A DNA stretch of 5,898 nucleotides from IMG/VR virus record IMGVR_UViG_2695420487_000019. The stretch is one strand, 5' to 3'. The DNA comes from a virus (lineage: Duplodnaviria > Heunggongvirae > Uroviricota > Caudoviricetes). Under the pieces are notes generated by a model. That model was not told where the DNA came from, did not search any database, and worked only from the letters and a program-made list of their open reading frames with translations. Position numbers and translations under genes: made by a program. Below are positions 4,612 through 5,898 of the stretch, piece by piece (within the stretch, counting starts at the first letter, position 1; every line of letters begins with the position of its first letter).

Positions 4612-4770
4612 TCAGATTAAATTAATCTTGACATCATAGCTTTCAAGACCCGTCATTTTTTCCCGTGCGGTAAACTGAATACTGGTAACTTCTTTCCCGG
4701 TCTTTTTCTTAAGTTCAATAATTTTTTTTGTTATATATTCAGAAATATCTGCTTCTGCTTTTGTTTTTAA
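4612..4770 (-). pseudogene. gnsB: GnsA/GnsB-family small protein gene, 5'-truncated by IS5 at about codon 5; the remaining 52 codons are fused in frame to 30 codons read from the IS5 end
   Basis: The C-terminal 52 residues LKTKAEADISEYITKKIIELKKKTGKEVTSIQFTAREKMTGLESYDVKINLI align without gaps to residues 6-57 of the 57-aa GnsA/GnsB proteins as I recall them (...TGKEVSEIRFTAREKMTGLESYDVKIKIM). The listed ORF 4612..4860 continues upstream across the IS5 terminus, where the codons L-F-A-P-S are encoded by the IS5 inverted repeat. Confidence 0.75.
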
Positions 4771-5898
4771 GGAAGGTGCGAATAAGCAGGTCATTTCTTC
4801 CCAAGCTGACTCGCTGATTAAAATTTCTCGGATCTGGGCCGATTTTTTTCCCGCAAACACATCGAATCAGCCTATTTAGGCTATTTTTTCCACCATTTCT
4901 GGCGTTATTTCCGGTTTTTACTGAGATCTCTCCCACTGACGTATCATTTGGTCCACCCGAAACAGGTTGGCCAGGGTGAATAACATCGCCAGTTGGTTAT
5001 CGTTTTTCAGCAGCCCCTTGTATCTGGCTTTCACGAAGCCGAACTGCCGCTTGATGATGCGAAACGGGTGCTCCACCCTGGCACGGATGCTGGCTTTCAT
5101 GTATTCGATGTTGATGGCCGTTTTGTTCTTGCGCGGATGCTGCTTCAAGGTTTTTACCTTGCCGGGACGCTCGGCGATCAGCCAGTCCACATCCACCTCG
5201 GCCAGCTCCTCGCGCTGTGGCGCTCCTTGGTAGCCGGCATCGGCTGAGACAAATTGCTCCTCTCCATGAAGCAGATTACCCAGCTGATTGAGGTCATGCT
5301 CGTTGGCCGCGGTGGTGACTAGGCTGTGGGTCAGGCCACTCTTGGCATCGACACCAATGTGGGCCTTCATGCCAAAGTGCCACTGATTGCCTTTCTTGGT
5401 CTGATGCATCTCCGGATCGCGTTGCTGCTCTTTGTTCTTGGTAGAGCTGGGTGCCTCAATGATGGTGGCATCCACCAAAGTGCCTTGGGTCATCATGACG
5501 CCTGCTTCGGCCAGCCAGCGATTGATGGTCTTGAACAATTGACGGGCCAGTTGATGCTGCTCGAGCAGGTGGCGGAAATTCATGATGGTGGTGCGATCCG
5601 GCAGGGCGCTATCCAGGGATAATCGGGCAAACAGGCGCATGGAGGCGATTTCGTACAGGGCATCTTCCATGGCACCGTCGCTCAGGTTGTACCAATGCTG
5701 CATGCAGTGAATACGCAGCATGGTCTCCAGCGGATAGGGCCGTCGGCCATTGCCCGCCTTGGGATAAAACGGCTCGATGACTTCCACCATGTTTTGCCAT
5801 GGCAGAATCTGCTCCATGCGGGAGAGGAAAATCTCTTTTCGGGTCTGACGGCGCTTAGTGCTGAATTCACTATCGGCGAAGGTGAGTTGATGGCTCAT
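4771..5898 (-). mobile_element. IS5 insertion sequence (IS5 family), partial in window: one terminal inverted repeat at 4771 and about 1128 bp of the element; the other end is expected about 67 bp beyond the window
   Basis: The terminus GGAAGGTGCGAATAAG at 4771-4786 matches the IS5 16-bp terminal inverted repeat. The flanking 4 bp TTAA (4767-4770) fits the IS5 4-bp target of YTAR type. The internal transposase is IS5 InsH. Total length inferred from the canonical 1195 bp. Confidence 0.9.
4918..5898 (-). CDS. insH: IS5 transposase InsH (326 aa, DDE type), complete, with its start codon at the last three bases of the window
   Basis: Translation [12 protein letters not shown]...[13 protein letters not shown] is near-identical, from memory, to K-12 IS5 transposase InsH along its whole length. 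It is transcribed toward the gnsB remnant. Confidence 0.9.

Follow-up and report, generated by a model that had tools for sequence, protein, structure and literature searches.

ISKpn26 interrupts the cryptic-prophage gene gnsB in one Escherichia coli lineage and leaves an in-frame chimeric reading frame

In the genome of E. coli SCPM-O-B-12142, the gene gnsB of a Qin-like cryptic prophage carries a 1,196-bp element of the IS5 family inserted after its nucleotide 19. The insertion itself is certain. The element is ISKpn26, and most probably a single transposition into a TTAA of gnsB within one lineage has produced a null or strongly reduced gnsB allele together with, as a by-product, an open reading frame which joins a few IS-encoded residues to GnsB residues 6-57. 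We analysed a stretch of 5,898 nt (the window) which contains the right-hand junction, and followed the element beyond its end in the genome named above, the source genome.

The target of the insertion is the TTAA at nucleotides 16-19 of gnsB, that is codon 6 and the first base of codon 7; the initial annotation had placed the event slightly too early, at about codon 5. The right-hand copy of the target-site duplication lies at 4767-4770 and is adjoined by the 16-bp right terminal inverted repeat of the element at 4771-4786 (GGAAGGTGCGAATAAG on the plus strand). An IS5-family terminus next to this TTAA had thus been recognized correctly, and the repeat is identical to the end of canonical IS5. 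Around 5950-5965 a second inverted repeat had been predicted, with TTAA and the start of gnsB next to it and the gnsB promoter also on that side. All of this is found in the source genome. There the last base of the IS corresponds to window position 5966 and the left-hand TTAA to 5967-5970, and on the other side of this TTAA lie the six 5′ codons of gnsB (ATG AAT ATT GAA AAC TTA) and a promoter-like site. The repeat at this end, GGAAGGTGCGAACAAG, agrees with the right repeat in 15 of 16 positions. In the source genome there is a TTAA at either end of the IS, where K-12 has a single one; in-silico excision of the IS and one TTAA gives back the K-12 sequence (0 mismatches in 591 positions). The event is a simple insertion and not a deletion endpoint. 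The 3′ part of gnsB (4612-4770, minus strand, with the duplication copy read as 4770-4767) comprises codons 6-57 and the TGA stop; it shows 100% identity with K-12 gnsB as far as position 4771 and translates into GnsB residues 6-57. The native promoter region, the ribosome-binding site and codons 1-6 are now 1.2 kb away from the other 52 codons. TTAA fits the Py-T-A-Pu (YTAR) target rule of IS5 and is known as an IS5 target at bgl and flhDC (PMC5493358). In the published ISKpn26 literature that we checked, no target-duplication sequences were found.

Within the window lie the right-hand 1,128 of the 1,196 bp of the element (4771-5898, minus strand). The window ends at the ATG of the transposase gene (4918-5898, minus strand, in the list of open reading frames), and 68 bp more lie beyond. 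This gene is upstream of the gnsB remnant and co-directional with it. Its 326-aa product is the protein which PGAP calls 'IS5-like element ISKpn26 family transposase' (WP_000019473.1), and the precomputed Pfam matches PF01609 (DDE_Tnp_1) and PF05598 (DUF772) mark it as a DDE-type transposase. The initial annotation had named the element IS5. Two copies are regarded as the same IS in ISfinder practice if their nucleotide identity is at least 95%. Our element is 99.0-99.2% identical over 1,196 bp to copies which PGAP names ISKpn26, these annotated copies being the standard of comparison. To an annotated canonical IS5 copy, which has 1,195 bp, the identity is only 91.8%, below this threshold. Reference ISKpn26 has 1,196 bp and a 326-aa open reading frame (PMC8796155), and the element agrees with ISKpn26 in length, reading frame, near-identity, terminal repeats and the 4-bp YTAR duplication. 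We therefore reject canonical IS5 in favour of ISKpn26, a different named element of the same family.

Reading outward on the minus strand, the gnsB frame continues through the terminal repeat as ...M-T-C-L-F-A-P-S / L-K-T-K-A-E-A-D... and is free of stop codons back to 4860. The reading of the repeat as L-F-A-P-S was therefore right, and so was the 82-aa open reading frame at 4612-4860 (minus strand), which according to the list of open reading frames and its translation consists of 30 IS-encoded codons and GnsB 6-57. The ATG proposed at 4858-4860 has to be withdrawn: the plus strand reads cac, hence the codon is GTG. An ATG is first met in frame at 4794-4792; it opens a 60-aa chimera (4612-4794, minus strand) of the IS-encoded residues MTCLFAPS and GnsB 6-57. 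PGAP annotates this shorter version as a CDS; it is already in RefSeq as WP_053883937.1, and its exact sequence occurs in 12 public contigs. The 82-aa version is annotated in some public records (CTS43267.1, CTU37631.1, STJ97023.1). The chimeric reading frame is thus already known to public annotation. A second frame out of the IS end gives a 65-aa open reading frame (4739-4936, minus strand), the PGAP 'hypothetical protein' WP_314731966.1. It has no Pfam match and is probably no gene; three unrelated ISKpn26 insertions have a frame with its start but with another tail.

Two of the three outward frames at the right end of ISKpn26 are open, and the chimera frame offers two possible starts, a GTG at 30 codons and an ATG at 8 codons from the tip. 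Because the end is open and provided with starts, any insertion in the present phase and orientation would yield an open reading frame joining IS residues to GnsB 6-57. At other ISKpn26 insertions both this frame and the second outward frame run into unrelated flanks. As far as the sequences tell, the outward reading frames are generic to ISKpn26 and not peculiar to gnsB, and in the chimera frame IS5 does not have one. There are four YTAR sites in gnsB, of which two have the right phase, and only one orientation of the two is suitable; an in-frame fusion thus had a prior of about 1 in 4. The in-frame chimera is therefore not remarkable. Members of the GnsB 90% cluster with other unusual lengths were considered as further chimeras and rejected; one uses an upstream ATG and one has a two-residue duplication.

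What remains of native gnsB at its 5′ end encodes only a 13-residue stub, MNIENLRKVRTSS followed by a stop, and the cell can no longer make native GnsB. The remnant belongs to the Pfam family PF08178 (GnsAB_toxin), with scores of 108.8 bits for the 60-aa chimera, 105.7 for the 82-aa version and 120.3 for native GnsB at a cut-off of 27. The chimeras cover profile positions 5-54, i.e. 50 of the 54 positions, and fall short of the full-length domain (positions 1-54). In a single-sequence AlphaFold model of the 60-aa chimera (mean pLDDT 74), a helix at residues 10-32 and strands at 36-44 and 52-59 are predicted, and the IS-derived residues form a low-confidence coil. Foldseek aligns the model to GnsA (4XO2) with a TM score of 0.77 and an rmsd of 1.9-2.7 Å. 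With moderate confidence, the chimera would adopt the GnsA fold of one helix and a beta-hairpin. The ASKA clones of gnsA and gnsB, which carry an N-terminal tag, are reported to be active in complementation. Since 50 of 54 profile positions and all predicted secondary structure are kept, and since the tagged clones are active, the chimera, if made, may well work. The paralogues GnsA and GnsB share their first four residues, MNIE. [quoted passage not shown] Overproduction of GnsA or GnsB is reported to raise unsaturated fatty acids and to suppress the defects of secG-null and fabA6 mutants (Sugai et al. 2001), in agreement with the biology cited in the initial annotation. The type II 'toxin' label used by PGAP and Pfam rests on ymcE-gnsA, YmcE being described as the antitoxin for GnsA (Wei et al. 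2015). In our sequence ynfN lies upstream of gnsB, and the gene order parallels ymcF-ymcE-gnsA; YnfN has no Pfam match.

The predicted Shine-Dalgarno pairing at the chimera ATG is -4.2 kcal/mol as compared with -6.0 at native gnsB, and the ATG lies within a predicted hairpin with a local structure of -13.6 versus -3.6 kcal/mol. The GTG of the 82-aa version has a pairing of -2.4 kcal/mol, near the median of -2.6 for all ATG and GTG codons of the locus. The chimera ATG is located 124 nt past the transposase stop, which makes translational coupling unlikely. We scanned the sense strand of the IS for sigma-70-like promoters and found none, and for an outward promoter in the right end of the IS the scan was negative both at the threshold of the tool and with a relaxed 8-of-12 rule; the sole candidate is TTATCT-17-TATAAT upstream of the native gnsB start, now the start of the stub. 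Between the transposase stop and the chimera a pattern scan of the sense strand, whose reach does not extend to Rho-dependent or weak termination, detected no terminator-like site, and the RNA structure of this segment is not significantly unusual (z = -1.47). With the IS upstream and co-directional, the geometry would permit read-through. Past the gnsB stop the pattern scan finds a hairpin and T-run (AAACCTCGTTTTTACGGGGTTT then TGTTATATTT; 4564-4585, minus strand), which is likely the native gnsB terminator. No Rfam family was found in this region, the sole match in the window being IS009 inside tfaQ. In one study gnsB was at 0.0 TPM in normal walled cells. Expression of the chimera would be weak at best, a reading drawn from sequence features which are rough predictors of translation. 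PGAP calls the 60-aa chimera a CDS on family similarity only.

The junction is present in 1 of 5,426 complete RefSeq E. coli genomes. Two further chromosome-scale assemblies have the same allele; their IS is identical, and over 12-16 kb they show 0-3 mismatches. The allele is also found in drafts and read-set assemblies with the same Qin deletion variant. Because the allele is identical in at least three chromosome-scale assemblies and in many drafts, the sequences indicate one inherited insertion in a single E. coli lineage. A recurrent insertion at a hotspot is unsupported, all carriers that we found having the same Qin variant and near-identical flanks. The genomes of the lineage have diversified (4.76-4.93 Mb). 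That the allele persisted through this diversification fits neutrality; a benefit is also compatible with it. Our literature search found no published gnsB::IS5 or gnsB::ISKpn26.

We suggest that the following happened. One transposition of ISKpn26 into the TTAA abolished native GnsB and created the chimeric reading frame as an incidental by-product rather than as an evolved feature. The chimera would be transcribed only by read-through from upstream, either from the displaced gnsB promoter or from the weak transposase promoter, and such transcripts would cross the whole co-directional transposase gene and continue to the native gnsB terminator. From its mediocre and structured initiation site the chimera would be poorly translated, and the net effect would be a null or strongly reduced allele. 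This allele is probably near-neutral, because gnsB is non-essential and prophage-borne, has a chromosomal paralogue (gnsA) and was silent in walled cells. There is precedent for transcription which crosses a whole IS5 into downstream genes, at fucAO (PMC11894529), and experiments have shown read-through for IS5 at nmpC as well (PMC11677980). This precedent comes from IS5, and it is in the right-end region that ISKpn26 differs most from IS5. As a likely side effect, transcription from the gnsB promoter now enters the transposase gene, much as the most active IS5 copy of K-12 is read from the nmpC promoter; the transposase promoter of IS5 is very weak, and at nmpC a host promoter drives ins5A (PMC11677980).

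This side effect could have consequences of its own. ISKpn26 sits about 80 bp downstream of the gnsB promoter in the same direction, and its transposase might be host-driven to such an extent that this became the most active copy of the lineage. The geometry is that of nmpC::IS5, where almost all of the ins5A mRNA that can be detected comes from the host promoter, which also determines how often the element transposes (PMC11677980). The promoter-like site precedes the stub, the stub reading frame stops 15 codons before the transposase ATG in the same frame, and about eight places in the source genome match a probe which includes the IS end. Against this, the putative gnsB promoter seems nearly silent in standard conditions, and raised ins5A alone at another locus is reported to have given no more IS5 transposition (PMC11677980). 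We regard an especially active gnsB copy as possible but rather doubtful; it would be compatible with the insertion and loss of gnsB function proposed above.

It is also conceivable that the gnsB promoter, or a fusion promoter formed by the IS and its flank, reads through ISKpn26 and gives a working GnsB with a swapped N-terminus, co-regulated with the transposase. The co-directional arrangement without an intervening terminator-like site would permit this, read-through from IS5 is experimentally demonstrated at fucAO (PMC11894529), and the preserved profile positions, the similarity of the model to GnsA and the reported complementation by tagged ASKA clones speak for a functional product. However, the initiation site is weak and structured, coupling to the distant transposase stop is improbable, and native gnsB is itself hardly expressed in ordinary conditions. 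The MNIE shared by the paralogues hints at constraint on just the segment which is replaced, and the same outward frame gives nonsense at other insertions, with no hint of design. Such a rewiring of gnsB is in our view unlikely. A bolder version regards ISKpn26 as a portable start codon: at its right end an open frame has an ATG, 24 nt away from the tip, and because transcription would also pass through the element, it could re-express interrupted genes with a swapped N-terminus. The gnsB promoter would then make one transcript for stub, transposase and working GnsB chimera, and this copy would be the lineage's active source of ISKpn26. If this were true, transposase output and a membrane-lipid modulator would be tied to the same stress signal, but we consider it very improbable. 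That the junction is the endpoint of a deletion or rearrangement or an assembly artefact, as might be thought because only one IS end lies within the window and one metagenome contig has an unrelated left flank, is ruled out for practical purposes by both ends, both TTAA copies and the uninterrupted flank in three independent chromosome-scale assemblies, by the same allele in many drafts and by the exact restoration of K-12 on excision, the odd contig being short and ending in a repeat, with a mis-join as the simple reading.

Beyond careful annotation the importance of the insertion is small. Two open outward frames at an IS end give rise to CDS calls which are spurious or misleading. From this locus RefSeq now lists a 'GnsA/GnsB family toxin' of 60 aa and a 'hypothetical protein' of 65 aa. 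The 60-aa entry is better read as an interrupted gene, gnsB::ISKpn26, than as an intact family member, and for strains of the lineage, which include SCPM-O-B-12142 and the NCTC strain of assembly GCA_900449525.1, native GnsB should be assumed absent. More speculatively, and by analogy with nmpC::IS5, the co-directional placement past a host promoter might make the gnsB copy the active ISKpn26.

A close parallel is nmpC::IS5 of E. coli K-12 (Onstead et al. 2024, PMC11677980), in which the IS is likewise nested in a prophage-borne host gene and co-directional with it. There, however, the gene is long, the IS lies towards its 3′ end and a fusion mRNA has been demonstrated, whereas here the IS lies 19 nt into a 174-nt gene and a fusion mRNA is hypothetical. 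At fucAO (Zhang et al. 2025, PMC11894529) transcription from a fusion promoter at the left end of IS5 crosses the element, and the gnsB remnant would need the same route. In that case an intact operon, which has translation signals of its own, lies downstream of the IS, and the promoter is activated through a Crp site in the flank, while the gnsB remnant has neither its own start nor its own ribosome-binding site. ISKpn26, which belongs to the IS5 group of the IS5 family, is best known for the disruption of mgrB in Klebsiella pneumoniae, also a very small gene; here the host is E. coli and the target a cryptic-prophage gene, and the gnsB insertion is not known to confer a selectable phenotype such as colistin resistance. 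Compared with the GnsA/GnsB family (PF08178; GnsA structures 4XO1 and 4XO2), the 60-aa chimera is native from its residue 9 to its end at residue 60 (GnsB 6-57), but 8 (MTCLFAPS) or, in the 82-aa version, 30 residues from the IS take the place of MNIEN, and the gene has been separated from its native promoter and ribosome-binding site. Canonical IS5 of K-12, finally, resembles our element in family, terminal repeats and type of target, and diverges from it most in the final ~150 bp before the right repeat. The outward frame of the chimera is open for 13 codons only in IS5 and lacks a start codon there, and therefore the chimera would not arise from an IS5 at the same site of gnsB.

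The insertion of an IS element into gnsB is real, ordinary and was mostly well read in the initial annotation; we correct what the element is called, which start codon the chimeric ORF has and where exactly in the gene the element sits. Directly after the TTAA at 4767-4770 of the window, nucleotides 4771-4786 (+) read GGAAGGTGCGAATAAG and match the IS5-family terminal repeat, as had been noted. A 481-bp junction probe (window 4480-4960) has 100% identity to the chromosome of E. coli SCPM-O-B-12142 (NZ_CP144928.1), where the IS can be followed for another 68 bp past the window until it ends in GGAAGGTGCGAACAAG (read inward). 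This second inverted repeat is the equivalent of window 5951-5966 and the second TTAA of 5967-5970. The far junction reads ATG AAT ATT GAA AAC, then TTAA, then the IS; on this side lie also the ribosome-binding site, AGAGGA, and the intergenic stretch that separates gnsB from ynfN. The second repeat, the TTAA and the gnsB start had been predicted at nearly this position. At the same site E. coli K-12 has the identical sequence with a single TTAA and without the IS, and removing the 1,196-bp IS and one TTAA in silico restores K-12 with 0 mismatches in 591. The test between simple insertion and deletion proposed earlier, run on this source genome, gives a simple insertion; a deletion endpoint is ruled out by both repeats, both TTAA copies and the exact K-12 restoration. 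Whereas the insertion had been placed at about codon 5, the TTAA that was duplicated spans gnsB nucleotides 16-19 and thus takes in codon 6 and the first base of the next codon, 7. The part of the gene before the IS now encodes a stub of 13 residues, MNIENLRKVRTSS, followed by a stop codon. The insertion conforms to the IS5 family norm, with its Py-T-A-Pu target, for which TTAA is documented (PMC5493358), and an AT-rich site: the host flanks have 26-36% GC versus 52-63% over most of the IS.

The element had been called IS5. Insertion and IS5-family end hold, the name does not. PGAP names the transposase 'IS5-like element ISKpn26 family', and the element shares 99.0-99.2% identity with many copies named ISKpn26 and about 92% with copies named IS5. 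Aligned directly, it and an annotated IS5 copy are 91.8% identical (1,196 versus 1,195 bp), which rules out canonical IS5; the reference ISKpn26 has 1,196 bp and a 326-aa ORF (PMC8796155). The outward frame of ISKpn26 runs for 32 codons without a stop and includes a GTG, 30 codons from the tip, and an ATG, 8 codons from it. By contrast, the corresponding frame of IS5 is open for just 13 codons and has no start codon, thus IS5 at the gnsB site would not yield a chimera. Just within the right end of the IS lies a hairpin that resembles a terminator, AGCCTATTTAGGCT with a T-run behind it (window 4869-4882, +), which faces into the element and could stop outside transcription entering antisense to the transposase.

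On the minus strand the frame reads ...E-E-M-T-C-L-F-A-P-S from the IS and continues with L-K-T-K-A-E-A-D... to the gnsB stop at 4614-4612. The ORF at 4612-4860 (-) indeed encodes the proposed in-frame chimera of 82 aa, 30 IS-encoded codons plus GnsB residues 6-57. Its first codon, taken for an ATG at 4858-4860, is cac on the plus strand and hence GTG; the first in-frame ATG, at 4794-4792, gives a 60-aa product. Two of the three outward frames of ISKpn26 are open. From a GTG within the transposase 3′ end PGAP annotates a 65-aa 'hypothetical protein' that reads out of the IS (WP_314731966.1; window 4739-4936, -), and the same internal GTG starts such proteins at three unrelated insertions of ISKpn26 (one in a lom-type gene, one beside shoB and one on a plasmid), each stopping elsewhere in the flank. 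Since the start is shared and the tails differ, this generic 65-aa ORF is very likely no real gene. The frame MTCLFAPS... is likewise open outward at these three insertions, for 22, 90 and 141 codons of unrelated sequence, respectively. Within gnsB there are four Py-T-A-Pu sites, all TTAA (nucleotides 16, 74, 161 and 166); at two of them the phase allows the frames to be fused, in one of the two orientations, so that the prior for such a fusion was about 1 in 4. The chimera is nothing special among ISKpn26 insertions. IS and duplication together measure exactly 1,200 bp, therefore stub, transposase and chimera share one reading frame and are parted only by stop codons. From the TGA of the 13-codon stub it is 15 codons downstream to the transposase ATG, the triplet with which the window ends (source locus L001 7419-7506; window 4612-5898). 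This is a curiosity with no evident consequence.

How could the chimera be expressed? Because gnsB and the transposase gene are co-directional, a transcript from either promoter is plausible; it would cross the stub, the transposase and then the gnsB remnant. On the sense strand of the IS we found no sigma-70-like promoter at the threshold of the tool or at a relaxed one. The sole promoter candidate, TTATCT-17-TATAAT, is upstream of the native gnsB start and now across the IS from the remnant. Downstream of the transposase stop the sense strand has no terminator-like site before the chimera; the native gnsB terminator hairpin (window 4585-4564, -) follows the gnsB stop codon. The promoter of IS5 itself is very weak (PMC11677980), and the gnsB promoter is quiet under ordinary conditions, given a reported 0.0 transcripts per million in normal cells against 135 in L-forms. 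The chimera ATG has a predicted Shine-Dalgarno pairing of -4.2 kcal/mol and the GTG one of -2.4, versus -6.0 for native gnsB and a locus median of -2.6, and about a quarter of the ATG and GTG codons of the locus match the -4.2 kcal/mol. The 60 nt around the chimera ATG are predicted to fold with -13.6 kcal/mol versus -3.6 at the native start. ATG and the GGGAAG motif fall inside a predicted hairpin that takes in the inverted repeat; the whole region is not unusually structured (z = -1.47). We infer that expression of the chimera would be low at best.

If made, the chimera possibly works. It covers positions 5-54 of 54 of Pfam PF08178 with 108.8 bits versus 120.3 for native GnsB. In a single-sequence model (mean pLDDT 74; TM 0.77 to GnsA 4XO2) all secondary structure is in the retained residues and the eight IS-derived residues are low-confidence coil. 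ASKA clones in which gnsA or gnsB has an N-terminal tag rescue a defect in membrane fluidity, so this terminus tolerates additions. However, GnsA and its paralogue GnsB both begin with MNIE, and in the chimera these four residues are replaced, not extended. The label 'addiction module toxin' derives from ymcE-gnsA and is putative for gnsB. Directly upstream of gnsB, ynfN has the place that ymcE, the proposed antitoxin, has beside gnsA; the source genome has it as an intact ORF of 76 aa (L001 7678-7908), the K-12 record marks it as frameshifted (locus L002 5478-5707), and it has no Pfam match.

The window lies inside a Qin-like cryptic prophage, in the order pinQ, tfaQ, tail-fibre and J-protein fragments, truncated nu1 with a lambda-type cos site, ynfO, ydfO, gnsB remnant and IS. 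Window 3134-3780 is 98.6% identical to the cos site and 5′ part of nu1 of phage lambda. As nu1 is cut at 85 aa beside a fragment of the host-specificity gene J (about 1879-3138) and nohA is whole in K-12, the Qin morphogenesis genes of this lineage were lost via a deletion other than that of K-12. Within the tail-fibre assembly gene tfaQ, Rfam IS009, a candidate small RNA, matches with 221.5 bits, well over its gathering score of 117 (window 1039-1237, -).

The junction occurs in one of 5,426 complete RefSeq E. coli genomes, and in all 29 other genomes among the matches listed the first 292 probe bases match an intact gnsB at 100%. Public collections hold the exact 60-aa chimera on 12 contigs and the 82-aa version on 9. 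The complete insertion, with identical IS and junctions, is present in two more chromosome-scale assemblies, UGDK01000002.1 (4.93 Mb) and CDRULO010000001.1 (4.87 Mb). Over 12.2 kb the former matches the source genome at 100%; compared with the latter, it shows 3 mismatches and 1 gap in 16 kb. Draft contigs stop within the IS, which is what one expects of a repeat, and all have the same variant of Qin, with 0-3 mismatches per 1-6 kb; K-12 differs from the carriers structurally on the pinQ side. On this sequence evidence the carriers are one lineage which inherited a single ancestral insertion. Mismatches to K-12 number 1 in 4.8 kb on the cspI-rzpQ side, 12 in 1.6 kb over ydfO-ynfO and 53 in 2.6 kb over pinQ-tfaQ, a mosaic which suggests recombination within the prophage. 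A metagenome contig of 1,754 bp (L015) has the IS and the right gnsB junction but an unrelated left flank (1-385), which was probably mis-joined at the repeat during assembly; a rearrangement that the IS mediated in another strain is the less likely origin.

ISKpn26, gnsB and even the chimeric CDS are all known and annotated already, and among the papers searched we found none on the gnsB::ISKpn26 allele. The allele is lineage-specific and the chimeric ORF is probably an incidental, poorly expressed by-product. Mildly interesting is whether the captured gnsB promoter may render this ISKpn26 copy unusually active. For such capture of a host promoter the closest functional analogue is nmpC::IS5, where the nmpC promoter drives ins5A of a nested co-directional IS5 copy in a fusion mRNA (PMC11677980). 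For read-through expression it is fucAO::IS5, where transcription from the IS5 left end spans the whole element and expresses the downstream genes (PMC11894529). Unlike in both these cases, the downstream gene, gnsB, is here without start signals of its own.
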